A DNA stretch of 64,000 nucleotides from Coriobacteriia bacterium. Lineage in GTDB: Bacteria > Actinomycetota > Coriobacteriia > Coriobacteriales > UMGS124. Numbering within the stretch: the first letter of the stretch is position 1; each line of letters starts with the position of its first letter. Of the stretch, positions 4,032-59,830 are shown in pieces. Under the pieces are notes generated by a model. That model saw only the letters and a program-made list of their open reading frames with translations, was not told the origin of the DNA and searched no databases. The translations under genes and the position numbers were made by a program. The stretch is from contig CAWVLT010000044.1 of the NCBI GenBank assembly GCA_963930185.1, positions 45,403 through 109,402 of the forward strand, in the 5' to 3' direction.

Positions 4032-5831
4032 ATGAGTAAGTCACTGCCGCGTAGAGAGTTTTTGCAGGGAACGACGATGGGCCTTGTGGGCACATCTCTG
4101 CTGGGAGGCACTGCTCGTGCTGTAGCAGATGAGGCTGCGAGTGCGACTCCTGACCAGGTTGATGCTGCTCCGGACTACGAGATCTATAATACGGAGCTCT
4201 TGATTATCGGAACGGGCAGTGGGGCAACATGGGCCGCACAGCGCGCGCTCGAACGCGGCAAGCAGGTCCTCATGGTGGAAAAGGGCCCATTCCGTCATGC
4301 TGGCGCATCGGGTATGAGCTGGGATGCTTGGATGCTCTGGTGGGATTATGCGGGGATACGCAACGATGGCTGGATGCTGATTGATGAGCAAATTCCCCTT
4401 GCAGCATGGACGTACCTCGGGGGTAATGACTTCAACCCATGGGTTTCCTCGATAAATCATGGTCAAACGCTGCCGTGGCGAGATGAGAATGGCTTTCCCA
4501 AGCCAGAGTCCGATGCTCTTCCTTGGAGTGTCTGCTCGGCATTCTATCGCCGTGAGATGGACGCGCTGCTAGCCATGGGCCATGCCGAAGTCATGGACCA
4601 GACCATGATCACTGATCTGCTTATCAACGACGGACGCTGCCTGGGGGCCGTTGGCATATATCTGCCAACCGGCAAGATGCGTGTCATACGCGCCGACGCA
4701 ACAATAATGGCCGCGGGCGGCGGAACTCAATTTCATGGTTGGCTCACGATCGGGTACCGTGGCATCAATTCAACCGATAACACTGGCGATCTCGATATGG
4801 CGGCATTCCGTAAGGGATTTACCATAGGCGAGGCAGAATTTGCTCAATATGACTTTAATTCGATAGTCTACGAGGATATTGCACATACGTTTGGCTGTGG
4901 AATTGGAGCCGACGCTGGCGAGCTCGAGATTCTCTATGACGCGAACTACGAGCGCATCTTTGCCGATGACGAAGAGGTAAACGGTAACCTTGGCATGAGT
5001 CAGAGAATTGGACGTCTGGTGTTTGAGGAAGGCAAGGGAACGCCGCACGATGGCGTTTATGTCCACTACAACGAGGATTCGTTCAATAGCGTGCGCTATC
5101 CTATTATGCGCAACGTCGCGTTTTTCCAGGAACATGGGTATGACCCGATAGGTAAGTATACTGAAGTGGCTGCCGAAATGTACGAGCATGGTGGCTCGCC
5201 TGTTGTTGATGTTAACATGATGACGGAGTGCGAGGGATTATTCAACGAGCGTGGAGCGGGTGCCTGCGGAGAAAACGGAGGCCCACACTGCATGCACAAT
5301 CGCTTGTATGGGAGCTATACGGGTGAATGTGCTTCGAACTACCTAGACACGGCGGCTCCTGTCTCACTCGAGGATATTGACTGGGCAAGCGTGCTCGCAG
5401 AGTACAACCGCCTGCATGAAATTCGTACGCGTGTTGTTGAGAATGGACTGCGACCCCATGAAATCCGCCGCAAGATACAGGCGGCAGGGTATCGTGGCTT
5501 TACCATTTATCGTTCGACCGAAATGATGGAAGAAGCTATTGCTGAGCTCGAGCGCATTCGCAAGGAGGATATGCCGCGGCAGGTTCTTGCGGATAGTTCC
5601 ACAACGTTCAATGTCGAGTGGAAGACGGCAATCGAGAACTATAACCTTCTTGATTGCGCGGAGGTGAGCATCAAGGCCTCCCTATTGCGTGAGGAGACTC
5701 GCGGGGCTTATCTGAGGCCGGAATTCCCTGAGCGCGACGACGAAAACTGGAATTGCATGCTTGCCTGTCATCTCGAGGGTGACGAGATGGTCTTCGAAAA
5801 ACGCCCGTATCCGCCGTTGGTGACACAGTAG
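4032..5831 (+). CDS. Tat-signal SdhA/FrdA-like FAD flavoprotein subunit
   Basis: Leader MSKSLPRREFLQGTTMGLVGTSLLGGTARAVA; FAD fold LLIIGTGSGATWAAQRALERG; His in KGPFRHAGASGMSW aligning with the covalent-FAD His region. C-terminal EETRGAYLRPEFPERDDENW is typical of the SdhA/FrdA/NadB family. ATG 4032 has a GGGGGAGG RBS. Confidence 0.85.
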   Translation: MSKSLPRREFLQGTTMGLVGTSLLGGTARAVADEAASATPDQVDAAPDYEIYNTELLIIGTGSGATWAAQRALERGKQVLMVEKGPFRHAGASGMSWDAWMLWWDYAGIRNDGWMLIDEQIPLAAWTYLGGNDFNPWVSSINHGQTLPWRDENGFPKPESDALPWSVCSAFYRREMDALLAMGHAEVMDQTMITDLLINDGRCLGAVGIYLPTGKMRVIRADATIMAAGGGTQFHGWLTIGYRGINSTDNTGDLDMAAFRKGFTIGEAEFAQYDFNSIVYEDIAHTFGCGIGADAGELEILYDANYERIFADDEEVNGNLGMSQRIGRLVFEEGKGTPHDGVYVHYNEDSFNSVRYPIMRNVAFFQEHGYDPIGKYTEVAAEMYEHGGSPVVDVNMMTECEGLFNERGAGACGENGGPHCMHNRLYGSYTGECASNYLDTAAPVSLEDIDWASVLAEYNRLHEIRTRVVENGLRPHEIRRKIQAAGYRGFTIYRSTEMMEEAIAELERIRKEDMPRQVLADSSTTFNVEWKTAIENYNLLDCAEVSIKASLLREETRGAYLRPEFPERDDENWNCMLACHLEGDEMVFEKRPYPPLVTQ

Positions 5832-5881
5832 GCTGGCATTTTGGCTACAAGACAGGTGTGTTGTGGGAGACAGGAGTGAAA

Positions 5882-6592
5882 ATGCTTCTAACCGTATATA
5901 AGTTTGATCCCGCTGTTGATGTCGAGCCCTATTATGTGCAAGGCGAAGTTCCTTTCCAGGAACATATGACCGGTCTCCATGCGTTGATGTATTTTGATGA
6001 GAATGTCGAGCACGTAAACTATGATCATAGTTGTCGCGCTCGTGCGTGTGGTCGTTGCGCCATGATGCTCAACGGGGAGCCAACTCTCATGTGCACGCAC
6101 TTTCTTGAAGACAAGGACTATACCATCGAACCGTTGAGGGGTTTTCGAGTCATTCGAGACCTCATTGTTGACAAGAGCCCGCTTGATGCACAGCTTACGG
6201 GAGTTTACAATCGTGTTCGCGTCGAACCATTCGATGCTCAGACTATTGCCGTCGATATGTCGGATTATGACAACGACACCATGATGTTGCTCTATGGCTT
6301 GGAGTATTGCTGCCGCTGCGGAGTGTGCGATGCGGCCTGCCCGGTACTTGCGGAGATGCCCGAAGAATATGCTGGCCCTGCAACAATGCTCGCTTTGGCG
6401 TATCGTCACCTTGATCCTCTTGATTCGGGCGATCGGGTTATGGAGGCAGTAGGCAAGGGGCTCTATCATTGTATTCAGTGTGGAAAATGCGATGAAGTTT
6501 GCGCCAGTAGTGACATCAGGCATCTTGATGCTTGGAAGATCCTACGAGCTGCGGCGGAGGAACGCGGCTTGAGGCCGAGCTATGCGGAGTGA
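5882..6592 (+). CDS. SdhB/FrdB-like iron-sulfur subunit (no signal peptide)
   Basis: 2Fe-2S-type motif CRARACGRCAMMLNGEPTLMC plus two CxxCxxCxxxC motifs (CCRCGVCDAACP, CIQCGKCDEVCA). ATG 5882 has a GGAG RBS, 50 nt after the flavoprotein gene. Confidence 0.85.
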   Translation: MLLTVYKFDPAVDVEPYYVQGEVPFQEHMTGLHALMYFDENVEHVNYDHSCRARACGRCAMMLNGEPTLMCTHFLEDKDYTIEPLRGFRVIRDLIVDKSPLDAQLTGVYNRVRVEPFDAQTIAVDMSDYDNDTMMLLYGLEYCCRCGVCDAACPVLAEMPEEYAGPATMLALAYRHLDPLDSGDRVMEAVGKGLYHCIQCGKCDEVCASSDIRHLDAWKILRAAAEERGLRPSYAE

Positions 6593-9384: not shown

Positions 9385-10437
9385 ATGAAAGGATGGGCGG
9401 TCGTGGGGAGGAAACTGGCGTCGGTTCAATACGTGCACGATGTGTGGCCAATCGAGGGTGCGGACTCCATTGAAGCCATAGGCGTCCTAGGCTGGACGTG
9501 CGTTGCAAAGAAAGGCGAGTTTGCGGTGGGGGACAGCTGCGTCTATTTCGAGATAGACTCGTTTCTCCCAATTGACGATCATTTCGAGTTCCTCCGCGCA
9601 AGCAGCTATAAGAATAGCGAGCTGTTGGGCGAGGGTTTTCGCCTCAAGACCCAGAAGTTCCGCGGGCAGATCTCCCAAGGGCTGGCGCTGCCCTTGAGTA
9701 TTCTCCCAGAGGGGAATTATGTGCTTGGCCAGGACGTGACCGAGCTTTTGGGCGTTCGCAAGTGGGAGATAGCTGAGTTCGCGAGCAGCAACGGAACGAT
9801 CATCGGGGGCCTTCCGGTGGGCCTGCCAAAGACGGAGGAATCGCGTGTGCAGGCAGAGCCCGGTTTGATCGACGAGTTTGTCGGCGTGCCCTATTACATC
9901 ACAACCAAAATGGATGGCACAAGCGTCAGCATGTTTCTAATTGACGGACGCTTTGGGGTGTGCGGTCATAATTACGAGTACGCCGATGACGGCAGGTGCT
10001 CATTTTGGGATTATGCGCGAAAGCATGACATAGAGAGCAAGATGCGCGATCTTGGCATTGGCGATGTCGTTGTGCAGGGCGAGTTCTGTGCCGCCGGCAT
10101 TCAAAAGAACCCGCTGAAGCTTACCAGGCCCGAATGGTATATATTCACCGTCTATGACCCACTTACTCGCAAGCATTTCTCCCTGGACAGAATGACAAGA
10201 CTTTGCGACAGACTTTGCCTGCAGGTTGTTCCCGTTGAAGAGCGGGGTGACGACCTGCCCTACAAGGACATAACGGCGCTGCTCGAGAGGGCTCGTGGTA
10301 ACTACCCAAGCGGAACGACGAAGGAGGGGATCGTGATCAGGCCGCTTGTTCCTGTGTACTCAAAGACGCTGGGCGGGCCTTTGTCTATGAAAGTGATCAA
10401 TAACGACTATCTGCTCAAGAAGGCAAAGCGCGAATAG
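9385..10437 (+). CDS. ATP-dependent RNA ligase, Rnl5 / DraRnl (DRB0094) family
   Basis: N-terminal OB-like module RKLASVQYVHDVWPIEGADSIEAIGVLGWTCVAKKGEFAVGDSCVYFEIDSFLP. Nucleotidyltransferase motifs: I TKMDGTS, III VVVQGEF, IV KEGIVIRP, V LSMKVINNDYLLK. The start could instead be GTG 9403. Confidence 0.75.
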   Translation: MKGWAVVGRKLASVQYVHDVWPIEGADSIEAIGVLGWTCVAKKGEFAVGDSCVYFEIDSFLPIDDHFEFLRASSYKNSELLGEGFRLKTQKFRGQISQGLALPLSILPEGNYVLGQDVTELLGVRKWEIAEFASSNGTIIGGLPVGLPKTEESRVQAEPGLIDEFVGVPYYITTKMDGTSVSMFLIDGRFGVCGHNYEYADDGRCSFWDYARKHDIESKMRDLGIGDVVVQGEFCAAGIQKNPLKLTRPEWYIFTVYDPLTRKHFSLDRMTRLCDRLCLQVVPVEERGDDLPYKDITALLERARGNYPSGTTKEGIVIRPLVPVYSKTLGGPLSMKVINNDYLLKKAKRE

Positions 10438-10757
10438 GTACGTCCAGGTCGAGAAGGCTGCGCATAAGCTCGGCAAACTCGGCTCGAGTTTATGCGCAGC
10501 TCAATTGGCGTGCGGTTGTCGTACATTAGATGGCCGAGATGCGGCATCAAAGGGCCAGTGGCAGTTGGCCCAGGATTGCCGCGCCTATGTTGATGCGGGC
10601 TTTGACGCCCATCATACTTTGCTTGTGTGGCTGTCCCTGTGTCCTCGGTCCTCTGCTCATATACATAAGGTGCTGAGCTTTGTATTAGCAGCATAGAGCA
10701 AAATGCTAATACATAGCTTAGTAGTAATGTATGGCGGCAGGAAATACTGTGAGTGGC

Positions 10758-11027
10758 ATGAAGACTGACGTGCCACATGACTACTCGCGCTTTCTCAGCC
10801 AGCTGGGACTGAGGATCCAGCAGCTGCGCAAATCAAGAAAGATATCCCAAGAGCAGCTTGGCGAGCTCATAGGCGTGAGCCGCGTCTATGTCGGCTACAT
10901 CGAGCAGTCAAGGGAGATCCCGAACCTTGAGCTGCTCTATAACATCGCAGCGGTGCTTGGTGTCGGACTGGATGAGTTGTTCGTCGGCATCGAGATTGGT
11001 GCTCCAACGAGAAGCAGAAACGCATGA
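10758..11027 (+). CDS. XRE-family HTH regulator (tandem paralog 1)
   Basis: ISQEQLGELIGVSRVYVGYIEQSREIPNLELLYNIAAVLGV. Start 10758 chosen because it aligns with the paralog start at 11133. Confidence 0.75.
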   Translation: MKTDVPHDYSRFLSQLGLRIQQLRKSRKISQEQLGELIGVSRVYVGYIEQSREIPNLELLYNIAAVLGVGLDELFVGIEIGAPTRSRNA

Positions 11028-11081
11028 CCACCGTGGTTTTTGAAGGCCGACATCTGACGTGCCTCGGCAGCGTGATAAATG

Positions 11082-11096
11082 CTAACTGACAGTTAG
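11082..11096. promoter_or_regulatory. 15-bp perfect palindrome, candidate XRE operator
   Basis: CTAACTG-A-CAGTTAG lies 37 nt upstream of ATG 11133. A degenerate copy (CTAATACATAGCTTAG, 10706-10721) occupies the same position upstream of the first paralog. Confidence 0.5.
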
Positions 11097-11132
11097 TAGT
11101 AAGTTCGCCTATGGGAACATAGGGTGTCCGGC

Positions 11133-11369
11133 ATGGAAACTAGGACGCCCGATGACTACATGCGCTTTGTTGAGGACCTTGGCGCAAATATCAGTCGCCT
11201 TCGCAGGGAGAAGGGCTTATCCCAAGAGGAGCTTTGCGAGCTCATTGGCATAAGCAGGGTTCACATGGGCTATATCGAGCAGGCGAGAAGGACGCCGAGC
11301 CTCGAGATTCTCTACGACATCGCTCGAGCGCTTGGCGTAGGCGTGGGAGAGCTCTTTCCTGCACGCTAA
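11133..11369 (+). CDS. XRE-family HTH regulator (tandem paralog 2)
   Basis: LSQEELCELIGISRVHMGYIEQARRTPSLEILYDIARALGV. Colinear similarity with 10758-11027, including the upstream DNA. Confidence 0.75.
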   Translation: METRTPDDYMRFVEDLGANISRLRREKGLSQEELCELIGISRVHMGYIEQARRTPSLEILYDIARALGVGVGELFPAR

Positions 11370-11785: not shown

Positions 11786-13519
11786 CTAGTCCGCCGCGAT
11801 TCCGTCGGCGCCCATGTCTCCGGTTTCGTCAGCTGTCTGGATGGTAGTCGCCTCAGGCATAACAGACTCGATAACGATACCTTCGTTTTCGATATAGGTG
11901 GCTGCATTATTGGCCGCTGCACGTCCGCTCCAGAAGGCGAAGGCGCTTGCCCAACCGGAATCAAGATGGTTGTAATCGCAGCCATAGCATCCGCCTGCGT
12001 CGTTGCCGATGACGTAAAGTCCAGGAATAGTCATCATTTCGGCGTTAACGGCCTCTAGCTTTTCGGTGACCTTGACACCACCGGTGGTATTGAGAATGCC
12101 GCAGATCATCTTGCACATATAAAACGGAGGCGTCTGCACCTTATGCATGTTGTTGACATCCTTATGGAACCACCAGTCGACGCCTTCGTCCACAGCGGCG
12201 TTGTACTCTTTAACCGTTGCGACCAGTTTTGCAGCATCAATTCCTGCGGCCTCCGCCAAGCCTTCGATGGTGTCAGCACGAATGATATTGCCTGATTCCA
12301 CGGCAGCATCGAGAGCGGCCGAAAGACCCTCAATAGGATCGTTATGGGAGGGCGTATAGACGGTTGTCTTGATGGTGGGGTTGTTTTCCATCATCTCAAC
12401 CATGTCGGAGTCGAAGAGTGAATAGTACATACCATCAGGCTGGTAGATGATCTTGTAATTCGATTCATTGGAGAACCGATCGGCGAGCTTGTTGACATAG
12501 AGATAGGGTTCACGTGCTGCACGATGTACAGGGCTGTCAATGACCTCTCCCTCTACCTGTTCGATAGTGCAGTCGTAGAAACGGATACCTTCCTCTGCGG
12601 CCCCTGCAGCCCAGGCCATACGGATACCTTCGCCATAATGGCCACCCATGCCGCCAGCAACCTTGTGACCTTGGGTTCCGCAGGCGAGCGCTTCATTGTG
12701 CCCGCAGTATTTCTCGAGCATCTCGGGACTGTTGGCAAATCCGCCAGTTGCAATGATGACAGCTCCGGCGCTTACTTTGACTACATTACCGTCCTTATCT
12801 GTGCATGCAACGCCGATGACGCGTCCGGAGTCATCTTGAATGAGATTGTTTGCATGCGTTTCGAGCAAGAACCGAGCGTTGTCAAATTCCTCGGCTTTGG
12901 CAACGAGCTTGTTGGCGAGGTGAATTCCACCCTTAGCATAGTTGCCATTGGCATCTTGATTCAGGAACATGATGCCTGCCGAGCCGCCGGGACCGCGAAG
13001 GCCCCACATGACACCGCCATCCGCGATGGTGCATCCTACATCATCGACAAGCCAGTCGATTGATGTGGCGCATTCTTCGGTGAACATGCGAACGAGCCTC
13101 GCATTGGCGCGCCAGCGGTTGAAGTCCATGTGATACGTGTAGGCATCAAGCGGGCTCTGAATCTCGTCACTCATCCCTGCTTCCTGCGTTGCCTTGCAGT
13201 CAAGCGTGTAGTGCGCCTCGACTCCGTAAAGGCCACCGCCGAGATAGCCAAAGTTTTCGACACCAATTACGTTAAGGCCATTTTCTGCCGCCTGCACGAT
13301 CGCGCACATACCGGCACCTCCGGTGCCGATTACAACAACGTCACATGCATATTCGGTTGCATTTTCTGTATCAAGGGGAATGATCTCCAAGCTCTCACCA
13401 GCTGTTTCTTCGGCAAAGGCGGGAGAGACGGCGAGCGACGCGCCCTTCAGTGTGCCAGCAGCTATGGCTGTTGATGCTGCCCCTACGACGAAACCTCTTC
13501 TCGAGACAAGCTCACCCAT
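11786..13519 (-). CDS. Tat-signal FAD-dependent reductase (FAD_binding_2; fumarate/urocanate-reductase-like)
   Basis: Leader MGELVSRRGFVVGAASTAIAAGTLKGASLAVSPAFA; DVVVIGTGGAGMCA dinucleotide fold; C-terminal IPGLYVIGNDAGG. RBS AAAGGAG. Confidence 0.85.
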   Translation of the reverse strand: MGELVSRRGFVVGAASTAIAAGTLKGASLAVSPAFAEETAGESLEIIPLDTENATEYACDVVVIGTGGAGMCAIVQAAENGLNVIGVENFGYLGGGLYGVEAHYTLDCKATQEAGMSDEIQSPLDAYTYHMDFNRWRANARLVRMFTEECATSIDWLVDDVGCTIADGGVMWGLRGPGGSAGIMFLNQDANGNYAKGGIHLANKLVAKAEEFDNARFLLETHANNLIQDDSGRVIGVACTDKDGNVVKVSAGAVIIATGGFANSPEMLEKYCGHNEALACGTQGHKVAGGMGGHYGEGIRMAWAAGAAEEGIRFYDCTIEQVEGEVIDSPVHRAAREPYLYVNKLADRFSNESNYKIIYQPDGMYYSLFDSDMVEMMENNPTIKTTVYTPSHNDPIEGLSAALDAAVESGNIIRADTIEGLAEAAGIDAAKLVATVKEYNAAVDEGVDWWFHKDVNNMHKVQTPPFYMCKMICGILNTTGGVKVTEKLEAVNAEMMTIPGLYVIGNDAGGCYGCDYNHLDSGWASAFAFWSGRAAANNAATYIENEGIVIESVMPEATTIQTADETGDMGADGIAAD

Positions 13520-13658: not shown

Positions 13659-15896
13659 CTATAGCGCGCGTCCTACATCGTTGCCGCCGCGGATAGCAAG
13701 CGCGATGTTGAACGGCTCGTTACAGTCTCCGATGGCATACTTCTCTGCGATGTCGATCTCATCCAAGAGCCCTGCGTTGGGCAGCGGATCGGCAGCATTG
13801 ATAATGCTATCGCAGGCGATCTGCGCATCCACGCCATAGCCAGAACGAATAGTGATGCCACCTTCTTCAATAGAGATGATCTCAGAGCTCGGCCATACCT
13901 TGAGGCCAAGCGAGTAGAGGGAAGTAAGCATGAAGCGCCGGGCATGCTGGGACTGTTGGAGATCAAGATCTTCGTTGGCACTCGGGGTTACCATGATGAC
14001 CTTCTTGCCGTGCACCATGAGCCACAGAGTTGCGTCAAAGGCCTGGGCGTTCGAACCGTATACCACCACCGTGTTTCCGGTGTCATCACCCATGAACGCC
14101 TCGTATGGCAGGATCGGAACGCCTTCTCCTTGGATCTCGAGCACTGCCGGTTGAGATCCAACTGCCAGAACAACGGCATCGGGTGCGGCGCTAGCGATGG
14201 TATCCGCAGTGACCTCGGTGTCGAGAATGACCTCAACTCCGTTGATCTCAAGCTGCCGAGAAAGATAGGCAACCAGGTCATCCAGATTCTCGTGTGGGCC
14301 CTTGACCGCGTTTGCGGTCGGCAGCTTGCCGCCGAGCATGCCTGTCTTTTCGTATAGGGTAACTTTGTGACCGCGTGCGGCGGCGATACGTGCTGCCTCC
14401 ATGCCTGCAGGGCCACCGCCAATGACCATGACATTCTTTGGATCACTGGACAGAGGAGGAAGCTCGTAGGTCGCAGGGCCATTTTCGGTCATGACGCGCT
14501 GGGTCAGGGCGTTGACGCGACAGTAACCCATCTCGCGGTTTGCCTCGTTGCTGCCAATATGACAGTGCAGGCAACGACAGCATGGGGCGATTTCATCAAG
14601 GCGGCCCTCGCGTAGCTTGTTGACATATTCAGTGTCAACGGTAAGCGGACGGGTCATGGTGTAGTAGTCGACTTTGCCCTCTTCGAGTGCGTTCTCGAAG
14701 AAGTCGGGGGCATGGGCGGGATCCATGTACGTGACCGTGCCGATGGGGATACTGACGACCTCCTTGAACTTTTTGGTCACATCGAGCAGCATACCGGCGC
14801 CCTGGTGGGCTCCATCGAGCAGGCCTTGGAAGTGACGGTCGAAGTTGTACTGATAGCCCCAAGGGTTCATCCCCTCGAGACCTTTGAGGATGAAGTAGAG
14901 ATCGCTGCCAAATTGGGTGGGGTGATAGTCCTTGATTCCCAAGCGGATGCACAGGGCATCCATTCCGGCGGCCTCAAAGGCCTGGGCGAATGCCAGTTCT
15001 TCCTCAAAGGTCGTTTGCTGGTTATAGGGAAGGTTGACCTCAATGTCGAGCGCACTGAATGCCTCGCCTATGTTGTTGGTCAGGTTGTCGTTGTCGACGA
15101 TGCCCTCCATCAGCGCTTCGATAATGAAGTCGTCGCCGCAGGCTTCCTTAATTTTCTGAACGGTTTCCACAACTATGCGGGCACGATTCTCGATGCTCTG
15201 CGGGCCGTAATCGTCAGTGCGGTGGTTATAGTAGCGTGACAAGAACTGAGTGCAGAGGGTGTTGCCGGTCATATGGAAGCCGATCCCTTTGAATCCCATC
15301 TCTTTGAACCACTGGCAGTATTCCACGGCCCCCTGCTGGAAAACCTCAATGTCTTCGACGGTCATTTCATCACAGGGCTTCACGGGCAGCGGTACAAATT
15401 GCACACCATAGTAGGTTCCATACTGGGCACTCTCTTCGGCGAGGGCCTTTCCCCATGCCATGACTTCATCGCCGGTTACCCCATTGGGTCGTTCGGCGGT
15501 TGGCGACGGGCTGAGCCAGTCAATATATTCCATCATGATGAACTCAACTCCGCCCTTAGCGAAGTTGAGGTAGTACTGATACATCTCATCAGTCGGGCCA
15601 TTGAGGTAGGTTGCCGATCCAGCTGCCGATTTCATAATGCGGTTGCTCAACTCAAGAGGGCCGAACTTCAGAGACGAGAAGAGGGTGGTGAGCTCCTTGG
15701 TATTGGAGCGCCAGTCGGATTCATCTTGTGGGTTTACATATGCCTGTGGAATAAGCCCTTCGACGAGCGTTGCGGAAACACCATCGGTCGCCACGGGAGC
15801 CTCCTCGGCATATGCTGGCAGTGTTGCAGCAAAAGCAACCCCTGCTCCGGTGGCGCCCGCTACTTTAATTGCGTCTCTGCGGGTAATGCTTTCCAT
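13659..15896 (-). CDS. Tat-signal Old-Yellow-Enzyme / enoate-reductase (2,4-dienoyl-CoA-reductase-like) flavo-iron-sulfur protein
   Basis: Leader MESITRRDAIKVAGATGAGVAFAATLPAYA; OYE barrel start LELSNRIMKSAAGS; Cys cluster CCRCLHCHIGSNEANREMGYC; VIGGGPAGMEAARIAAARGHKVTLYEK FAD fold. RBS GGAGAGGAG. Confidence 0.85.
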   Translation of the reverse strand: MESITRRDAIKVAGATGAGVAFAATLPAYAEEAPVATDGVSATLVEGLIPQAYVNPQDESDWRSNTKELTTLFSSLKFGPLELSNRIMKSAAGSATYLNGPTDEMYQYYLNFAKGGVEFIMMEYIDWLSPSPTAERPNGVTGDEVMAWGKALAEESAQYGTYYGVQFVPLPVKPCDEMTVEDIEVFQQGAVEYCQWFKEMGFKGIGFHMTGNTLCTQFLSRYYNHRTDDYGPQSIENRARIVVETVQKIKEACGDDFIIEALMEGIVDNDNLTNNIGEAFSALDIEVNLPYNQQTTFEEELAFAQAFEAAGMDALCIRLGIKDYHPTQFGSDLYFILKGLEGMNPWGYQYNFDRHFQGLLDGAHQGAGMLLDVTKKFKEVVSIPIGTVTYMDPAHAPDFFENALEEGKVDYYTMTRPLTVDTEYVNKLREGRLDEIAPCCRCLHCHIGSNEANREMGYCRVNALTQRVMTENGPATYELPPLSSDPKNVMVIGGGPAGMEAARIAAARGHKVTLYEKTGMLGGKLPTANAVKGPHENLDDLVAYLSRQLEINGVEVILDTEVTADTIASAAPDAVVLAVGSQPAVLEIQGEGVPILPYEAFMGDDTGNTVVVYGSNAQAFDATLWLMVHGKKVIMVTPSANEDLDLQQSQHARRFMLTSLYSLGLKVWPSSEIISIEEGGITIRSGYGVDAQIACDSIINAADPLPNAGLLDEIDIAEKYAIGDCNEPFNIALAIRGGNDVGRAL

Positions 15897-16069: not shown

Positions 16070-17452
16070 TCACTGCTTGCTATTGTTCGAGCTCGTGGGA
16101 AGGAGCTTTTCCATTAACTCCTGGCGCGAGTGGACGTTTGCCTTGCGGTAAATATTCTTGATGTGTCCTCTTACCGTGCTGCAGGACAGGAATAGCTTGT
16201 CGGCAATTTGTTGTGGAGTCTCCCGGAGAAGCAGATGGCTTGCTATTTCAGTTTCTCGTGCTGTGAACCCGAAGGAATGCATGGCAACAGCAGAGTCGCC
16301 TTGTCTTGGCATGCCGCTGGGATTTCTATCCATGACAGATTGGATTTCTGCCTTTCTTGTACGCTGCGCGACAAAAGCCAAGATGCCGGAAACGAGCAGC
16401 AGAAAAAGGGATATCACCTCGATTGTCGCAAACGGGGAAGGCCCTATGCTGCTCAGTGATTCGCACACGGTCCCAATAAGAGCGCCCAAGAGTGTTGATG
16501 CTGACAGGGAGCAAAAGATTGCCGATGGAAGGAGGCAGTCAGGGAGGTTGTACTCCTTTGTCGCTTCGGCAGAGGCATGAGCTAATGACAAGAACAAAAC
16601 TTCCTGGATGACCAGTGTGACCGCTTTAATCGGCCCGAGATACCACAGGCCAAGTAGCGGCGCGGGAAGTAGCACTAGGGCGGTGATGAGAAATGCGGGG
16701 ATAACAAGTTGTGTTTTGTAGAGCCGCAAGCGAACAAGGAAGGTTCCAATCACAACTCCTACAAGGGGTGCGATGAGATGAATGAGCGTTTGGATATCGG
16801 GGCTTAGGGCCCCCATCGACATGAACAGGTAGCTTGTCGCAACAGATATCATCGTAATTGCGGTGAATCCGAGAAGCGGCATGCTTGTGGTGCGAATTTC
16901 TTTCATCGGGCATGTACCCGAACCACCTGCGCCATTGACAGATGGATCTGGGATCATGCGATTAGGCATGTCGTTGAGGAGCATGGCAGATATGAACGGG
17001 AATGTAGCGAAGAGGTAAAGGAGAAGTGGCGGGGGAATTGGGAGAGAAAAACAGCAGCTAAAAAGGTCGCCAACGAGGACTGCGATGCAGATGTCGAGCG
17101 GATCAGATGCTGTTCCCATAAAGCTTCTCAGGCTTATGATCTCCAGCATAATGAGTCCTGTTGCTGAGAGAAACGACCCGAAAAACCACCACATGGACTC
17201 AGGCAATGTCATGAGTATAACTAAGCCGAGCGAGGTTGATACGGCTAGGGGACACAGGATGGCGGGGGCTGTCGGATTGACTCGGCGCAGCGCGATGGGA
17301 CCCAAGATGGCAACGATTGTCGAAACTAGTAGGTAGAATGCAAAGGTTGCAGAAAGCCCGGCCCCGTCTCCAGGATAGGTAAAGGCGTTTTGGTTAACAC
17401 AACCTTTTCCAACTGCCCAGAGAAGTGCAAATCCGATGACCGATGACGACAT
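16070..17452 (-). CDS. polytopic membrane protein with C-terminal LuxR/GerE HTH (membrane LuxR-type regulator)
   Basis: Long run of hydrophobic segments followed by FGFTARETEIASHLLLRETPQQIADKLFLSCSTVRGHIKNIYRKANVHSRQEL. ATG 17452 has a GGGGAGGGGGG RBS; the ORF-track extension to 17668 is rejected. Confidence 0.85.
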   Translation of the reverse strand: MSSSVIGFALLWAVGKGCVNQNAFTYPGDGAGLSATFAFYLLVSTIVAILGPIALRRVNPTAPAILCPLAVSTSLGLVILMTLPESMWWFFGSFLSATGLIMLEIISLRSFMGTASDPLDICIAVLVGDLFSCCFSLPIPPPLLLYLFATFPFISAMLLNDMPNRMIPDPSVNGAGGSGTCPMKEIRTTSMPLLGFTAITMISVATSYLFMSMGALSPDIQTLIHLIAPLVGVVIGTFLVRLRLYKTQLVIPAFLITALVLLPAPLLGLWYLGPIKAVTLVIQEVLFLSLAHASAEATKEYNLPDCLLPSAIFCSLSASTLLGALIGTVCESLSSIGPSPFATIEVISLFLLLVSGILAFVAQRTRKAEIQSVMDRNPSGMPRQGDSAVAMHSFGFTARETEIASHLLLRETPQQIADKLFLSCSTVRGHIKNIYRKANVHSRQELMEKLLPTSSNNSKQ

Positions 17453-17730
17453 ATCCCCCCTCCCCTCGAGATCGCTTTCATTATAAGTAATGATTAGAGG
17501 GAGAAGGTTTTGGTGAACGCTTTTGTCCGGGCACTTCACTCGGACGCAGGGGAGGGGAGTGCGATAGAGTGGGGCCTGCGACGGCCCCCGTCGGGGGCTG
17601 GCGACAACCGCCGCCGGCCGCCGCGCGACTCCGCCGCTGCAGTAGAGGACCCCTGCGGGGCCCATCATAAAGCCCCTGGCTATGCCGGGGGATTATTACT
17701 CCGGCTGAGATGGGGCTGATTATGCTCTAC

Positions 17731-19179
17731 CTACGCGGAGATCTCTTCTATTTTGGAGAGCAATTCCTGTCTCGAATGAACCTCAGCCTTGAGATATAGC
17801 CTAACCACATGGCTATGGATTGTCGAGCGCGAAAGTCCCATGCTCTCGGCTATGAACGGCTCGCTTCTGCCTTTCATGAGAAGTAATGCAACTTCGCATT
17901 CGCGGGGCGTGAGACCATAGGCTTGTGTGAGGGCATTTTCTACCCTGGTCTCATCGCTCAGACGCATATCGAGCGATTCTTTCCTGATTCCCCAAAGAAT
18001 GGCAACATTATGATCATTAAAGAAAGTAAGTATAATAATAAGCATAGAAACGATAGTTATTTGGGATAGAGACATATAGAAATTATTGTTATTGATAAAT
18101 AATGCTGTTATTGTTCCAATAGCAGTACCTATCTGCATGAGACCACGACCAACTCCATATGGCCTCTCAAGCGGCAATCTAGTTTCAGAGGCTAGCTCAT
18201 AGATTATCATCCACATCAGGAGTTCAAAGCAGGTATAGCCCGCAGAGGCTGTTGCGTTAAGGAGCATATTTAGCCAATTGCTAGATGAACCATAGGCCAA
18301 AAGAAATGAGATAGCAAAAAAGGACGAACCAAGCATGCTGACAGTCCAGAATCTATTGCTGCACTTTACTGCAACTAAAAAAGAAGCTAATCCGATCAAC
18401 ATTCTACATAATTCATGAATTAGATAGTAATAATTAAAGAATTGCTCGCCACTGGGAGACAGGCCACGCATTAAGCCAAACGCAATGCCAAAGACTGAGA
18501 ATCCAGTCATTACTTTCCAGGGAAGGGTACTTTTGCTATGCCTGTCATCGATGCTGGATCTGGGGGACGTGTTTCTGGAGGTCGAAGACGACTGTTCCTC
18601 ATTAGATTCCCCACATAGAAAGAAAATTGAAATAGGGAGTAAAATCGTACATATAATAGATAAATATTTAGGTATAATATAAATAAATATATAAATAAAA
18701 CTCGATATAATCAGTGCAAGTGAAAAGATAGATAAGACAATTTGGTCACCGAGATCTGGATTAATGGATTTGCAGAGCTGGTAGAGCGCAAAGGCTTCGC
18801 CGAGACCTGCGAGGATGGACACGAAGATGAGCGCTTCGTTCGAGAACAGGCTACATACGGGAATGAGGGCCGTTCCTGCTGTTGCCAGTATCAAAGCTTT
18901 GGAGACAGAAATAAAGGATAGAATGCGCTGCGCATGCCTGTCGATGATCGGGATCAAGATAGTTATTACTGAGCAGGCAACCAGGGCAACAAGGTGGACT
19001 ATCTCGCTGCTGAGCAGCGGATTGCCAGAGTAAGATACGCAGGCTGTACCGAAGAATACCGATGATGCCCAGGCCCAGTATAGGCCAAGGCAGACGATGA
19101 TCCTGAAGTGGTTTCTGAGCTCGGCTAGGATTTTTTGGCCAGCTACTTTTTGATCAACATTAGCTGCATCAGGACCCAA
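17731..19179 (-). CDS. polytopic membrane LuxR-type regulator (AT-rich)
   Basis: Multiple hydrophobic segments followed by YGLTPRECEVALLLMKGRSEPFIAESMGLSRSTIHSHVVRLYLKAEVHSRQEL. TTG 19179 is preceded by AAGGAGG. Confidence 0.85.
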   Translation of the reverse strand: MGPDAANVDQKVAGQKILAELRNHFRIIVCLGLYWAWASSVFFGTACVSYSGNPLLSSEIVHLVALVACSVITILIPIIDRHAQRILSFISVSKALILATAGTALIPVCSLFSNEALIFVSILAGLGEAFALYQLCKSINPDLGDQIVLSIFSLALIISSFIYIFIYIIPKYLSIICTILLPISIFFLCGESNEEQSSSTSRNTSPRSSIDDRHSKSTLPWKVMTGFSVFGIAFGLMRGLSPSGEQFFNYYYLIHELCRMLIGLASFLVAVKCSNRFWTVSMLGSSFFAISFLLAYGSSSNWLNMLLNATASAGYTCFELLMWMIIYELASETRLPLERPYGVGRGLMQIGTAIGTITALFINNNNFYMSLSQITIVSMLIIILTFFNDHNVAILWGIRKESLDMRLSDETRVENALTQAYGLTPRECEVALLLMKGRSEPFIAESMGLSRSTIHSHVVRLYLKAEVHSRQELLSKIEEISA

Positions 19180-19409: not shown

Positions 19410-20936
19410 ATGGAAAAGACCATCGATCGCCATAGTTTCATTTCATATGCAGTGGCAGCAGGTACGGTTGCGGGGTCTTCTCTGCTGGCTTCGCCCGCCG
19501 TGGCGGAAGAGGTGGCTTCTAATTCTGGTACGGATGGCGACGCTGTCTCTGAGGTGCTCTAGGCGGACGTCGTTGTTGTGGGTGCGGGCATTTCTGGCCT
19601 TGCCGCAACGGTACAGGCTGCGGAGTTGGGATTGAAGGTCATCACTCTTGAGGTCAATGACTTCCTTGGTGGTAACGGCTTGGGCACCGAGGGCATATTC
19701 GCGATCGGCTCAAAGGGACAGCAGGAACAGGGAATAGAACTGACGTTGGCCGATATAGTGGCGAATGAGCAGGACTTCTTTAAGTATAAGGTCGATGCTC
19801 TTTTCTGGAAAGATATGGTCGAGCAGTCTGCTGACACGATAGTTTGGCTTGAGGATAACGGAGTTGAATTCTCTGGCCTGATCGATGACTACCCGCCTCT
19901 CGGTTCTGTCAAAACAATGCACTGGTGGAAGGACGGCCTTGGTTCTTCCTATGTTGATCCAATGGGGACCAAGGCAGAAGAACTTGGCGTACAAATTCTC
20001 ATGCAGACGCGCGGACAAGAGCTGGTTCTTGATAATGGTAAGATTGCTGGCATATTGGCAACCGACGCTTCTGGCAATTCGCTTCAGATTGATGCTCCTG
20101 TTGTTATTTTGGCAACTGGTGGTTTTGCCGATAATAGTGAGAAGCTGCAAGAGGCTGCTGGTGTTGATCCGAGCAAGGTGTTTGTGCGCAGCTTTGGTGG
20201 CCATATGGGTGATGGGCTCGATATGGCTATTCAGGCTGGTGCTCGAGATTACTCGCTTACCTCTTCATACCTGAGAGAGACCACAATCAAGGATGTCGAC
20301 TTCGCAACGCCGTTCTCGATGTATTTCTTCACAACCGGTGCCAACCTCTGGGTCAACGAGAATGGTGAACGGTTCGCTGATGAGAACTGCTTGTCAATTA
20401 CATCTGGCTGCCAATCAAATGCAAACACGAACCAGAAGCAAACGTATGCGTTGTTCTCTCAGGAGATTCTCGATGCAAACCCCGATGCTGCTGCCGCTTG
20501 CGCTGAGCTGCTTAGTTCGGGAACCGAAGAAGTTGCCATGGGAGAAACGGTAGAGGAGCTCGCCGAAAAATTCGGGGTTCCCTCCGATGTGCTTGCGGAA
20601 ACAGTTAGTCGCTACAATGGGTTCTGCGACGCAGGCCTAGACGAGGATTTCGCGAAGGATCCTTCGCAGCTCATACATCTCGAGCCGCCTTTCTACATGG
20701 CCAGAATGAGCTACTGCTACATGTCTTCGATTGGGGGAATAAAGACGAGTAGGCACGCGGAGGTTCTCGATTCGTCGGGCTCTCCCATCCCCGGCTTGTA
20801 TGCAGTCGGTAGCGATGGCTGCCAACTATACGCCGGTACTTATACGATATCGGTATGTAGCTCATACAACGGAAACAATGTCTACTCCGGGCGAAATGCC
20901 GCACGCAATGCGCAGGAGTATATAGCCGATCTGTAG
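19410..20936 (+). pseudogene. FAD_binding_2 reductase interrupted by an in-frame TAG, with a degenerate Tat motif
   Basis: ATG 19410 reads MEKTIDRHSFISYAVAAGTVAGSSLLASPAVAEE...SEVL, then TAG (19560-19562), then ADVVVVGAGISGLAAT in the same frame through to 20936. RH replaces the twin-arginine. Restarting at GTG 19578 would delete beta-1 of the FAD fold. Confidence 0.7.
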
Positions 20937-21137: not shown

Positions 21138-22838
21138 TTACTCGTTCTCTGCGATGTACTTGCCGGTAAGATAGGGGAATGTGATGCAGTTGATTCCGTA
21201 GTTGGCGCCCTGCATCATGAACGTGTACTTACCTGCAAACATGTCACCAACACCGGTGCCGACGTTATAGAGACCAGGAATTGCCTCATCGTTTTCGTCG
21301 CATACCTGCATGTGGACATTGGTGCGCAGGCCACCAAGGATGGTGTAGAAGCGAACGGGATAGTGGTCAACAATCTGGCAATAGAACGGCGGGGTCTGAA
21401 TGGGGATCAGGAAATCGGGGTCCTTGTAGAAATCGGTATCACTGCCGTTTGCACAGAGCTCGTTATAGTGATTGACCGTCTCAACGGCAGAGGCAGGAAG
21501 ACCAGAAAGCTCAAGAAGCTCCTCGATCGTTTCGGCCTTGATGTAGTTTCCTGCCTCAACCTCCGCTTCCCAGGTGGCAATAACATCCTCAGGGGAGCGC
21601 TTCGACTCTTCGCGGTACTGATATGCATACGCCGTGTCGTACCAATCGAAGCGATTGGCCCAATCACTGTCCCAGATGGCCCAAGTACGACCATTCTTTT
21701 GCATGGCTTGGGTCATTGGGCCAAGGGAACGGGATGCGTATTCGTTCATGAAGCGTTCGCCGTCTGCATCAAGCAGCAAGCCAAAGAAGTTCTGGTAGCG
21801 GTTGACGGTTGCTCCTCCTGAGAAAGTACCAACCATCGGGCAGTTCGGAAGGGTCTTTTGCCAAGCGGCACCAATCCACAGCGCAGCCTTGTGCATATCG
21901 CCCTTATAAAGGCCTCCGACGGCCATCTGGAGATCATAGTTTTGTTCGGAATCGTAGATATCATCGCTAATCATGCTTGCATACTCAGGTGCATACTTGA
22001 GCATCATTTCGCGATCAGCCGAGAAGTCACCGGCTGCAATTACGATCGCCTTGTTGCCGACGTACTTGTTGTATCCGCCATTTTCTAGATCGCGAGCGAT
22101 GACTGCCGTGACGCGGCCGGATTCTTCGTCGCGCACGAGCTGATAGCCGGCGTTGCGCCAAACGACGGTGCCGCCTTCTTCCTGGAACCTACCAACAAGC
22201 TCGTTAACCAGCGCTTCCTGGTTTTGGCTAGCTTTGTCCGAGCTGATATCAGGCAACCAGCTATGCGAAGCGGGATACGAGAAGTAGATGCTGTCTTCTT
22301 TCAGGTAATTGCTCTGCTCAAGGGCGGTAAAATAGCCACGCTCTTCCATGATGTCGCTGACCCAGTCAAAGGCTTCTTCGCACGTGTTGTACCAGAGGTA
22401 CCATTTCTTCTGGTCAACGGCATTGTAGTTGGCGAGGATCTCTTTCTGGACCTCAAAAACGGGCATGCGCTCAAGTCCGGCATCCTTCATTGCCCGGCTA
22501 TACGCGCAGCAGTTTGAGCCTCCGCGGCTGCACGGAACAGAGGATGCGGAGAAGAGAATAGTGTTCAGGCCGTTGTCGATGCAGGAGTTGGCGCAGATGA
22601 TGCCGGCGGTGCCAGCGCCAACTACGACAACATCAGCCTCATAGGTTTGCGCAATCTCGTCATCAGAAACAGGATCAGGGGCTACCTCAAACCCCCATTT
22701 ACGCTGGGCAATTTCAGGAGTCATGAGATCGTCGGCCGAAGCCTCGTCCGCACCGGCAATTGAGGTGGCCCCGATTGTTGCTGCGCACCCAATTGAAGCG
22801 GCGGCGCCCTTCAGGAAGTTCCTTCTTGTGGTACTCAT
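21138..22838 (-). CDS. Tat-signal FAD-dependent reductase (FAD_binding_2)
   Basis: Leader MSTTRRNFLKGAAASIGCAATIGATSIAGA; DVVVVGAGTAGIICA; C-terminal IPGLYNVGTGVGD. RBS AGGAGGAGGG. Confidence 0.85.
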   Translation of the reverse strand: MSTTRRNFLKGAAASIGCAATIGATSIAGADEASADDLMTPEIAQRKWGFEVAPDPVSDDEIAQTYEADVVVVGAGTAGIICANSCIDNGLNTILFSASSVPCSRGGSNCCAYSRAMKDAGLERMPVFEVQKEILANYNAVDQKKWYLWYNTCEEAFDWVSDIMEERGYFTALEQSNYLKEDSIYFSYPASHSWLPDISSDKASQNQEALVNELVGRFQEEGGTVVWRNAGYQLVRDEESGRVTAVIARDLENGGYNKYVGNKAIVIAAGDFSADREMMLKYAPEYASMISDDIYDSEQNYDLQMAVGGLYKGDMHKAALWIGAAWQKTLPNCPMVGTFSGGATVNRYQNFFGLLLDADGERFMNEYASRSLGPMTQAMQKNGRTWAIWDSDWANRFDWYDTAYAYQYREESKRSPEDVIATWEAEVEAGNYIKAETIEELLELSGLPASAVETVNHYNELCANGSDTDFYKDPDFLIPIQTPPFYCQIVDHYPVRFYTILGGLRTNVHMQVCDENDEAIPGLYNVGTGVGDMFAGKYTFMMQGANYGINCITFPYLTGKYIAENE

Positions 22839-24637: not shown

Positions 24638-26152
24638 ATGCTACTAGGTGAGCTCGAAAAAGTGCTGCATTCGGGAGAGTCGTCCAATGTCGAATTTAAG
24701 CGCTGCGGTGACCTGCCAGGAAACGATGTGTTCGAGAGTATTTGTTCGTTTGCCAACCGTTATGGCGGAGATATCTACCTAGGCGTATGTGATGACGGGA
24801 CAGTCGTCGGGATTGACGCACTTCGCGAGAACGAGATAAAGCGCAATCTCGTAAACGTGCTCAATAACCCGAAGCTGTTCGACGTTGCCCCCACTGTTGA
24901 GATCGAGAGTATAGGAACTCCGCAGGGAACTGTTATCCGCCTATGGGTTCCGATGAGCCCGCATGTCCTCCGATACAAGGGCGTTGTGTACGACCGAGTT
25001 GCCGACGTTGACGTAAAAATCAGCGGGGTGGCCCAAATATCCGCAATGTACATTCGCAAGCAGTCCTATTACAGCGAGCGTAAGATATTTCGCTATCTCA
25101 GGCTATCCGATCTACGTGGCGATCTAATCGAGCGCGCACGAAAAATGGCTGTGCTCCGAAGCCCCGGGCATCCCTGGAAAGAGATGGATGACGCTCAGCT
25201 ACTACGTAGCGCGCGGCTGTATGACACGGACTACGACACGGGGGTGGAGGGCTACACGCTTGCGGCGGCCTTGCTGTTTGGCCCCGATGATGTGATCGCC
25301 AGCGTGTGTCCGCCATACCTGACGGACATCATCGTTCGTCGCGAGGATCTTGACCGCTATGATGACCGCCTTATCGTGAGGACCAACCTGCTTGATGCCT
25401 ATGACCAGATCATCGACTTCATTTGCCGGCAGCTTCCTGACAGGTTCTATCTTGATGGAACGCGCAGCGTAAGCCCGCGTGACATCATCGTTCGCGAGCT
25501 TGTTGCCAACTCCCTTATGCATCGGGAGTTCAGCAGCGCCATTCCGGCGCGCTTTGTCATCGAGAACGATGGCATCCATGCAAGCAATGCGTCCCGCTCG
25601 ATGTTAGAGGGGGCAATCACCCTCGGTGACTTCAGCCCTATTTCGAAAAATCCCCTCATTGCCGGCGTTTTCCAGCAGATCGGCTTTGCCGAGCAGGTTG
25701 GCAGTGGCATGCACAACCTATACCGGTACTCGCGGATATATTCCGGCAAGGATCCGGTGTTTGTGGAAGGTGACGTGTTCAGGGCCTTCGTTCCGGTGAA
25801 CTACGTGGGTGGCCCGGCCACTGGTCACAAAGATGCGTTTGCCCTCCAAGCGGGGCCGTTGAACGAGAACCGACCGGAGGAGAATCGGGGAGATCGTGCG
25901 CGAGAGGGTAGGGGATTCGCGGACATGCTGCCGGTTCCTAACACGGCTTCTGCCGCCGCCTCGCCGCGCGATGTTCCTGGCGCCATCGAACGGGACATCG
26001 AGCGCAATGGTTTTGCCACTGCCTCCTCGACGGCGTCCATAGCCGGTGTCTCCAACCGAACGGCGAGTCGCTACCTCAATGCCGCCGTAAGTTCCGGTGA
26101 CCTCCGCATGGAGGGAAGCACGCGCAACCGCCGGTACTTCTCGATGAGGTAA
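24638..26152 (+). CDS. AlbA_2 (Schlafen-like divergent AAA) domain protein with C-terminal HATPase_c_4-like region and wHTH; putative regulator
   Basis: N-terminus LHSGESSNVEFKRCGDLPGNDVFESICSFANRYGGDIYLGVCDDGTVVGI is the AlbA_2 signature. The C-terminal end ASIAGVSNRTASRYLNAAVSSGDLRMEGSTRNRRYF is wHTH-like. Confidence 0.7.
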   Translation: MLLGELEKVLHSGESSNVEFKRCGDLPGNDVFESICSFANRYGGDIYLGVCDDGTVVGIDALRENEIKRNLVNVLNNPKLFDVAPTVEIESIGTPQGTVIRLWVPMSPHVLRYKGVVYDRVADVDVKISGVAQISAMYIRKQSYYSERKIFRYLRLSDLRGDLIERARKMAVLRSPGHPWKEMDDAQLLRSARLYDTDYDTGVEGYTLAAALLFGPDDVIASVCPPYLTDIIVRREDLDRYDDRLIVRTNLLDAYDQIIDFICRQLPDRFYLDGTRSVSPRDIIVRELVANSLMHREFSSAIPARFVIENDGIHASNASRSMLEGAITLGDFSPISKNPLIAGVFQQIGFAEQVGSGMHNLYRYSRIYSGKDPVFVEGDVFRAFVPVNYVGGPATGHKDAFALQAGPLNENRPEENRGDRAREGRGFADMLPVPNTASAAASPRDVPGAIERDIERNGFATASSTASIAGVSNRTASRYLNAAVSSGDLRMEGSTRNRRYFSMR

Positions 26153-59782: not shown

Positions 59783-59830
59783 GGGCGCGGTAGAAGGTTT
59801 GACCGATCGAGCAGGAAGCGAGGGATTTCA

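Follow-up and report, generated by a model that had tools for sequence, protein, structure and literature searches.

The 64,000-nucleotide stretch examined here (the window; contig CAWVLT010000044.1 of Coriobacteriia assembly GCA_963930185.1) carries on its reverse strand a gene for a 745-amino-acid protein that, by its sequence, is a reductase with flavin and iron-sulfur cofactors, akin to 2,4-dienoyl-CoA reductase. We propose, at a probability of about 0.65, that this protein is an NAD(P)H-independent reductase containing flavin mononucleotide (FMN), a [4Fe-4S] cluster and flavin adenine dinucleotide (FAD), which is exported by the twin-arginine translocation (Tat) pathway and fed by the respiratory chain. 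The evidence comprises its cofactor motifs, its leader, a variant second dinucleotide motif that is invariant across phyla, and the electron-input modules found in exported relatives.

Domain architecture and cofactor motifs

That the gene is real is shown by the 120 homologs, 55-82% identical at E <= 1e-261, which were listed when 5.8 billion protein clusters were searched. The encoded protein has an Old Yellow Enzyme (OYE)-type barrel, a four-cysteine [4Fe-4S] motif and an FAD Rossmann fingerprint, as do FadH of E. coli, the type III aryl-CoA reductase NCR and the enoate reductases. Pfam matched Oxidored_FMN (PF00724) in two partial stretches (86 bits against a cut-off of 27) and, C-terminal to this FMN domain, a two-Rossmann module of the pyridine-nucleotide-disulphide-oxidoreductase type. 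The sole FAD_binding_2 match covers 37 residues of the Rossmann N-terminus (aa 489-525, 21 bits), and Pfam detected no PF00890 catalytic domain in the protein.

An initial annotation, made from the sequence alone, held that the Fe-S and FAD modules were kept, and the alignments bear this out. The four cluster cysteines (C439-x2-C442-x2-C445-x13-C459) align with those of FadH and are invariant in 99 homologs, and CCCC occupies the cluster positions in nearly all representatives at 50% identity. The first dinucleotide motif, VMVIGGGPAGMEAA...VTLYEK..LGG, is intact, as had been claimed, with GGGPAG, its invariant glycines and the acidic E516 all in place. By analogy with other flavoproteins that have two dinucleotide-binding domains, we take the C-terminal YAIGDC to be the FAD-binding 'GD' motif. 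In pairwise alignment with FadH, the barrel carries two family-specific insertions (approximately aa 268-295 and 327-358) that contain invariant residues.

The closest solved structures by sequence (HMMER against the PDB) are NCR (6qkg, E 1.7e-49) and FadH (1ps9, E 4.5e-35), followed by histamine and trimethylamine dehydrogenases. An AlphaFold2 model built on the 99-sequence alignment has a predicted local distance difference test score of 87.9 and a predicted template-modelling (TM) score of 0.87, and residues 1-45 are its sole low-confidence segment of three or more residues. Foldseek returned NCR, FadH, histamine dehydrogenase and trimethylamine dehydrogenase as the best full-length matches to the model (TM-scores of about 0.7), and XenA, YqjM and TsER as matches to the barrel.

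Predicted export of the protein

The leader has the organization of a Tat-substrate signal peptide, with a T-R-R-D-A-I-K n-region, an uncharged h-region of 16 residues and a predicted AYA/EE cleavage site. R6 and R7 are invariant in the alignment of 99 homologs. The twin arginines are found in 117 of the 120 listed homologs, and the remaining three are N-terminally truncated. At least 92 of the 120 have a lipobox cysteine after the h-region; AxA-type sites are found in the others, the window protein among them. The ortholog in Dehalobacter sp. DCM is directly followed by two tatA genes. The Pfam TAT_signal profile gives the window protein 16.9 bits, below its cut-off of 22.7. Judged on these leader features and their conservation, the window protein is almost certainly exported, in agreement with the initial annotation, which had placed it outside the cytoplasm on account of its RR leader. 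Since NAD(P)H is absent there, an exported protein could not use free NAD(P)H.

A conserved variant of the second dinucleotide motif

In the third domain (domain III, the counterpart of the FadH NADPH domain), residues 610-623 read VVVYGSNAQAFDAT, with GSNAQA where FadH has GCGGIG. Two independent alignments (HMMER against PDB sequences, and MAFFT with FadH) place VVVYGSNAQAFDAT opposite VAIIGCGGIGFDTA of FadH and VVFIGGNEISIQTA of NCR; the register is fixed because F-D is shared. Asn616 occupies the position of the second glycine of GxGxxG. In the AlphaFold2 model the motif forms a loop between a strand (609-613) and a helix (617-628), with a further strand at 632-636, and thus the Rossmann beta-alpha-beta unit of domain III is retained. 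The canonical fingerprint of this domain is absent, as the motif is G-S-N-A-Q-A and beta2 ends in T637-P638, without an acidic or basic residue. Another GxGxx[GA] was sought across all 745 residues. An intact second motif elsewhere in the protein was rejected, since the sole other match, GYGVDA at 686, sits in a beta-hairpin and not at a Rossmann turn. Alignment and model therefore both uphold the position at which the initial annotation had seen a non-canonical motif.

That annotation went on to suggest that the NAD(P)H site had decayed and that electrons now enter another way. Decay was rejected. G614, N616, A617, A619 and D621 are invariant in the 120 listed homologs, which come from several phyla and share the consensus V-[VI]-V-[YF]-G-S-N-A-Q-A-F-D-[CA]-A-L-W-L-T-V-H-K-K. 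Mean column conservation is 0.79 in domain III, 0.79 in the OYE barrel and 0.80 in the FAD domain, and the best-conserved stretch of domain III is the former nucleotide-binding unit (607-652). The loop is therefore under purifying selection and functional, rather than an eroding relic. The second part of the suggestion, a different route of electron entry, is sustained by the comparison with relatives given below.

Relation of the variant motif to export

HMMER was run exhaustively against 1.84 billion representatives (50% identity clusters), and we graded motif state in the full-length matches after aligning them with FadH. After removal of two false-positive 'leaders', 21 exported and 103 leaderless representatives were compared. 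GxGxx[GA] is missing from 16 exported representatives and kept in five, and it is missing from 40 leaderless ones, NCR included, and kept in 63. These counts led us to reject the idea, raised in the initial annotation, that the degenerate motif is confined to Tat-leader members. The association between motif loss and export is weak and not exclusive (Fisher p ~0.01 in a first pass that included the two false-positive leaders).

The adenosine ribose is normally bound by an acidic residue that ends beta2. Among the aligned representatives, 49 of the 63 canonical leaderless proteins have this residue, as do five of the 21 exported proteins; the five exported proteins with GxGxx[GA] all lack it. 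One exported relative, P0134, retains GVGVQA despite an FMN_bind-like extension with a flavinylation-like motif; the presence of the glycines is thus a poor indicator that NAD(P)H is used.

In a neighbour-joining tree calculated from BLOSUM distances between C-terminal halves, which has no support values and is only a rough guide, the exported proteins (~750-900 aa) fall into one clade. The sister of this clade is a leaderless clade of ~695-aa proteins, also mostly motif-variant. The canonical GGGxxG prevails in the leaderless ~640-650-aa clade that contains FadH, and NCR and a mycofactocin-like DGxxxx group appear as separate losses. Thus the fingerprint was lost several times in the superfamily. 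The branching gives a hint that, in the exported lineage, motif loss may predate export.

Probable routes of electron entry in exported relatives

As NAD(P)H is absent outside the cytoplasm, the respiratory chain is the expected source of electrons. FMN_bind or FMN_bind-like domains, each with a flavinylation-type motif, are part of four exported relatives. In P0135 (833 aa), the representative of a 103-sequence cluster, the FMN_bind domain is N-terminal and its motif is DGVTGAT. Homologous N-terminal extensions occur in P0136 (DVISGAS) and in P0134, which has the variant DAIAGAS and no Pfam match to FMN_bind at E <= 0.001. In P0139 (907 aa) the FMN_bind domain is C-terminal and carries DAVSGAT. 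In addition, a five-haem NapC/NirT cytochrome of 197 aa is divergently adjacent in two of 35 dereplicated loci. Exported PF00890 reductases use flavinylated domains and cytochromes interchangeably (PMC8238504), and the FMN_bind fusions and cytochrome neighbour among the exported relatives of the window protein mirror this modular input.

In NCR, NAD(P)H is no donor and the surface-exposed FAD takes electrons from a ferredoxin-like one-electron donor; N540 and I542 line the proposed donor-docking hollow (PMC6502838). Counted along the HMMER alignment, these residues are positions 3 and 5 of GGNEIS and align with N616 and Q618 of the window protein. In trimethylamine and histamine dehydrogenases, which bind ADP, the cluster mediates electron exchange with electron-transfer flavoprotein (ETF) (PMC6502838). 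NCR and these two dehydrogenases are thus known family members that have ceased to depend on NAD(P)H.

Several observations weigh against our proposal. The window contains no c-type cytochrome, flavinylation motif or FMN_bind domain, and no donor is adjacent to the gene; Pfam found no FMN_bind domain (PF04205) in the 745-aa protein, and neither that domain nor D-x-x-[ST]-G-A-[ST] occurs in the protein or anywhere in the 64 kb. The 35 dereplicated loci share no partner gene by open reading frame (ORF) calling, counts of CxxCH and Fe-S motifs, and all-against-all clustering. The only recurrent neighbours are FAD_binding_2 reductases (nine loci) and LytTR response regulators (four). The Bacillus tuaregi gene looks monocistronic, and the Dehalobacter and Bellilinea (L006) genes also stand alone. 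Entry of electrons at the FAD, and not at the Fe-S cluster, is suggested solely by analogy with NCR. The proton-donor tyrosine of FadH aligns with T213 here, which leaves the catalytic chemistry putative. Finally, among the 50%-identity representatives motif state is only loosely linked to export, and the exported P0128 retains a FadH-like GGGAIG...QR fingerprint. Since the window offers no donor candidate, the donor is presumably encoded elsewhere.

Proposed mechanism and alternatives

We envisage that the protein would be folded and loaded with cofactors in the cytoplasm and then exported. The window protein would be released by signal peptidase I at the outer face of the membrane, whereas most homologs would be lipid-anchored instead. 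Electrons from the respiratory chain would arrive through a protein or bound-flavin donor and pass from the surface-exposed FAD to the [4Fe-4S] cluster and on to FMN, which would transfer a hydride to an extracellular substrate with an activated C=C bond or a comparable group. This substrate would not be a CoA ester, a class of compound that we would not expect outside the cell. Domain III would have lost its dissociable NAD(P)H site and would most plausibly act as a donor-docking surface beside the FAD, kept under selection, as proposed for NCR. The donor could vary by lineage, from a fused flavinylated FMN_bind domain to a neighbouring NapC/NirT cytochrome; the window organism, with neither, would presumably rely on a shared donor encoded elsewhere. 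Expression is probably induced by substrate through the adjacent LuxR-type regulators, possibly jointly with the downstream FAD_binding_2 reductase.

The OYE active-site strand, which in OYEs holds substrate-polarising residues, lies at aa 205-216 (15249-15284 of the window) and has three versions within the exported family: GFHMTGNTLCTQ in the subclade of the window protein, EIHMTGGGLANS, and EINAAGFNLGE[HQ] in the majority. Their cores, HMTGNTLCTQ, IHMTGGGLANS and NAAGFNLGE[HQ], are seen across the window protein, the homologs P0011, P0012 and P0021, and the majority clade. This variation suggests different substrates, of at least three classes.

More speculatively, the exported OYE/[4Fe-4S]/FAD enzymes might constitute a third, unrecognised superfamily of extracytoplasmic respiratory reductases beside the molybdopterin and FAD_binding_2 types. 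The domain with the GSNAQAFD loop would then be a dedicated electron port that docks a membrane donor or reacts directly with menaquinol at the FAD, and in anaerobes from several phyla the stand-alone protein would couple the quinone pool to the reduction of a common unsaturated compound outside the cell. We regard this extended version as a tentative possibility.

The protein could instead be paired with the exported FAD_binding_2 reductase at 11786-13519, with one feeding the other or the two carrying out successive reductions of one substrate. A ribosome-binding site, GAAAGGAG, precedes the gene for that reductase and no terminator-like site was found in the 140-bp gap between the two genes, which are probably co-transcribed. 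The nine loci with a neighbouring FAD_binding_2 Tat protein also include loci in which this gene is close, on the same strand and next to widely differing proteins (L025, L028, L014). In the other 26 of the 35 loci, however, the neighbour is absent, the B. tuaregi, Dehalobacter and Bellilinea genes being alone, and reductase genes are clustered in Eggerthellaceae genomes anyway. We consider such pairing unlikely.

It is also improbable that the enzyme runs in the oxidative direction, like trimethylamine dehydrogenase, histamine dehydrogenase and 6-HPON amine oxidase, with an extracellular substrate oxidised at FMN and electrons leaving via the Fe-S cluster or FAD to a respiratory acceptor. Those enzymes are full-length structural relatives (TM ~0.67-0.69) and are independent of NAD(P)H. 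Dehydrogenases of the trimethylamine and histamine type have 6-S-cysteinyl FMN, and ADP where FAD would sit. The matching N-terminal stretch of the window protein, KSAAGSA, has no cysteine, and its FAD fingerprint is intact. Furthermore, the gene lies amid exported reductase paralogs in an anaerobe, and its closest relatives by sequence, NCR and FadH, are reductases.

Alternatively, domain III might hold a permanent, non-exchanging nucleotide (ADP or a nicotinamide dinucleotide) loaded before export, so that GSNAQAFD and VTPNPNEDLD would form a ligand site and not a docking surface. Glucose-fructose oxidoreductase, which is exported by Tat with bound NADP, provides a precedent. The high conservation of residues 607-652 would fit such a site, and some exported relatives keep GxGxx[GA]. 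In a Rossmann fold, a glycine normally lets the pyrophosphate approach the helix N-terminus; here Asn replaces that glycine, and beta2, which ends in T637-P638, offers neither an acidic nor a basic residue there. No nucleotide has been reported at the corresponding site of NCR, whose motif is likewise G-x-N. We therefore hold a resident nucleotide to be a poor prospect.

That the RR leader is non-functional and the protein an ordinary cytoplasmic NAD(P)H-dependent enoate reductase is most improbable: the TAT_signal score is below its cut-off and TRRDAIK deviates from S/T-R-R-x-F-L-K, but every full-length homolog across phyla has RR, a hydrophobic stretch and then an AxA site or lipobox, tatA is adjacent in one genome, relatives have FMN_bind fusions and a NapC/NirT neighbour, and the NAD(P)H fingerprint is incomplete.

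Genomic context

Table 1. Features of the gene for the 745-aa protein and of its surroundings (positions in the window)
Feature	Position	Strand	Remarks
ORF, complete, 745 aa	13659..15896	-	Tat leader, OYE-type FMN barrel, [4Fe-4S] linker, FAD domain, third (former NAD(P)H) domain
Shine-Dalgarno-like GGGAGAGGAGAA	15900..15911	-	4 nt 5' of ATG, read from sequence
Twin-arginine signal peptide MESITRRDAIKVAGATGAGVAFAATLPAYA	15807..15896	-	Predicted AYA/EE signal-peptidase-I site; no lipobox
NPQD-motif N-terminal extension (conserved) and OYE/TIM-barrel FMN domain	14607..15752	-	aa 49-430; Pfam, FadH alignment, Foldseek
[4Fe-4S] ligand motif C439-C-R-C442-L-H-C445-(x13)-C459	14520..14582	-	Alignment to FadH cluster cysteines
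First dinucleotide (FAD) fingerprint VMVIGGGPAGMEAARIAAARGHKVTLYEK..LGG	14328..14435	-	G493, G495, G498 and E500 invariant; E516 nearly invariant
Domain III, FadH NADPH-domain counterpart	13797..14096	-	aa 601-700; DSSP of AlphaFold2 model; fold retained, strongly conserved
Variant second motif VVVYG614-S-N616-A-Q-A619-F-D-A-T	14028..14069	-	Domain III beta1-alphaA turn
YAIGDC, C-terminal 'GD' motif	13722..13739	-	G723 and D724 invariant
Tat-leader FAD_binding_2 (PF00890) reductase, 577 aa	11786..13519	-	Downstream, 140 bp past stop codon; 130 bits
LuxR/GerE-family regulator, long hydrophobic N-terminal part	16070..17668	-	Upstream; Pfam GerE at aa 468-519
Second LuxR/GerE-family regulator, long hydrophobic N-terminal part	17731..19179	-	Upstream; Pfam GerE at aa 423-474
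Second exported family member, N-terminal 166 aa	63502..64000	+	Cut by window end; starts MSATNGNVTRRAFVVGSACAAAAS...VNA/EE

The ORF at 63502 had been called a paralog with the same leader type, and this holds: it begins with a Tat-type leader and an AxA-type site, and it is 42-46% identical to family members over its 166 aa, as a more distant member. A divergent LuxR regulator at 61805-63355 accompanies it.

The window holds many exported FAD_binding_2 reductases, and LuxR regulators are near most of them. This set of exported PF00890 enzymes and LuxR regulators matches the reductase arsenals described in Eggerthellaceae (bioRxiv 10.1101/2022.12.26.521950). Beside the 745-aa gene, seven or more PF00890 paralogs occur in the 64 kb, at 11786-13519, 21138-22838, 27441-29381, 41244-43118, 50427-52088, 54243-55841 and 19578-20936. 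RR leaders are present on four of these (11786, 21138, 41244 and 50427). The copy at 19578-20936 starts at profile position 5 and is leaderless, perhaps because of truncation or a wrongly called start. At the loci of P0135 (L097/L098), a divergent LysR-family regulator adjoins the gene and an FAD_binding_2 gene with a faint FMN_bind match lies ~5 kb away, an architecture like that of a reductase arsenal but unlike the LuxR-linked Eggerthellaceae type.

Two pairs on the forward strand, at 4026-6592 and 57716-60565, encode FrdA-like (FAD_binding_2 and Succ_DH_flav_C) and FrdB-like (Fer2_3 and Fer4_8) proteins. In the first pair only the flavoprotein, and not the Fe-S subunit, carries a Tat leader (LPRREFLQG), which would fit co-export of a two-subunit complex; no membrane-anchor gene was seen nearby. 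Among the reductase genes, 43354-44952 (forward strand) encodes a serpin of 532 aa (PF00079, 177 bits) with a twin-arginine-type leader, MTRRGFAGAALGGLVALGASVASSRAALADE.

GC content is 0.45-0.60 in the reductase-rich region 1-26000 (minimum 0.454 at 18-20 kb), compared with 0.58-0.67 in mid-window (26000-54000). This contrast may mark horizontally acquired reductase islands, and it fits the ~58% identity of the 745-aa protein to homologs labelled Chloroflexi and Firmicutes. At 9385-11369 and 24638-26152 are an RNA-ligase-family protein (PF09414/PF21189) near small HTH_3/HTH_31 proteins and a Schlafen AlbA_2/HATPase_c_4 protein; these may be remnants of mobile elements or defence systems that flank the reductase operon. 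Among assemblies with an identical 745-aa protein, the flanking regulators and reductases of L001 differ in called length from those of L002 and L003 (476 vs 566, 352 vs 425/478, and 426 vs 460 aa), which points to frameshifts or strain-level pseudogenisation of the flanking genes.

Distribution of the family and significance

Among the named sources of homologs are Gordonibacter, Bacillus tuaregi, Dehalobacter, Tissierellia, Clostridia, Anaerolineae/Bellilinea and Acidobacteriota, and the listed homologs that bear a name cover five phyla. Identity is ~58% between homologs labelled Eggerthellaceae, Chloroflexi, Firmicutes and Acidobacteriota. Members are named in databases only as 'oxidoreductase' or 'FAD-dependent oxidoreductase'. 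Scores of the window protein against NCBIfam fall well below the curated cut-offs for mycofactocin OYE_2, bilirubin reductase long form and BaiCD (260, 230 and 190 bits vs 793, 750 and 825, respectively), and the other exported representatives are likewise below the curated cut-offs. The exported clade is a large unnamed family, present in several bacterial phyla, whose electrons probably derive from the respiratory chain.

We could not find the exported branch of the FadH/NCR/enoate-reductase class described in the literature, and it is apparently undescribed; the fold, the cofactor set and NAD(P)H-independent members are already known. Full-text searches for exported OYE or enoate reductases gave nothing relevant, with many subscription papers outside their coverage, so that an earlier description is possible. 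A survey of gut reductase arsenals counted only exported PF00384 (molybdopterin) and PF00890 enzymes (bioRxiv 10.1101/2022.12.26.521950). Flavinylation surveys, among them one that lists FMN_bind partners of PF00890 (PMC8238504), do not mention OYE-type partners. The paper on the E. lenta resveratrol reductase reports FAD as the only cofactor and mentions neither an OYE/Fe-S enzyme nor a signal peptide.

The exported clade to which the window gene belongs is separate, highly conserved and based on the OYE/Fe-S/FAD scaffold. Should its members be respiratory, such anaerobes would have a wider range of electron acceptors at their disposal, among them possibly enoates from the diet or the host in the gut. 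The clade would also represent a natural experiment in which a two-dinucleotide flavoprotein was rewired from NAD(P)H to extracytoplasmic donors, with three solutions for electron input: some members have a flavinylated domain fused to them, some a cytochrome gene beside their own, and others have neither. In ene-reductase biocatalysis, the proteins are candidate NAD(P)H-independent scaffolds that could potentially be driven by mediators.

Comparison with known systems

NCR is the best match to the window protein by both sequence and fold. The two share the FMN barrel, the [4Fe-4S] cluster, FAD and a third alpha/beta domain, and the second motif of NCR is also of the G-x-N type (GGNEIS, compared with GSNAQA here). 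Unlike the window protein, NCR lacks a signal peptide; its substrate is a CoA thioester, on which it acts at very low potential, and the two proteins are only ~24% identical. W459 of NCR blocks the NADPH site, whereas the aligned residue here is L538, so the tryptophan that marks the closed site in NCR is lacking. On the rough tree, NCR is an independent motif loss and not the sister of the exported clade.

FadH likewise resembles the window protein in its three domains, four aligned cluster cysteines, FAD fingerprint and fold. In contrast, it is cytoplasmic and NADPH-dependent, it has GCGGIG with ...QRK after beta2, and its substrates are CoA esters. The window protein has, relative to FadH, the two barrel insertions and the N-terminal NPQD extension.

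Trimethylamine and histamine dehydrogenases (2tmd, 3k30, 6de6) have the same fold and have given up NAD(P)H, with ETF as a partner through the Fe-S cluster. They differ from the window protein in carrying ADP for FAD, whereas the FAD fingerprint of the window protein is intact. These enzymes run oxidatively with a covalent FMN, and they are not known to be exported.

Mycofactocin-associated FadH/OYE oxidoreductases (TIGR03997) are the best NCBIfam match and have also lost the second motif, which reads DGHWQC or DGYING. In contrast to the window protein, they are leaderless, ~650 aa long and without the barrel insertions, and their motif is a different one. Judging from the family name, they presumably use a different redox partner.

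The extracytosolic PF00890 reductases (urocanate, fumarate and cinnamate reductases) share with the window protein export by a signal peptide and LuxR-linked loci in Eggerthellaceae, and with its exported relatives modular electron entry through a flavinylated FMN_bind domain or a cytochrome. They differ in catalytic superfamily, as they have the FAD_binding_2 fold, whereas the window protein combines an OYE barrel with Fe-S and FAD.

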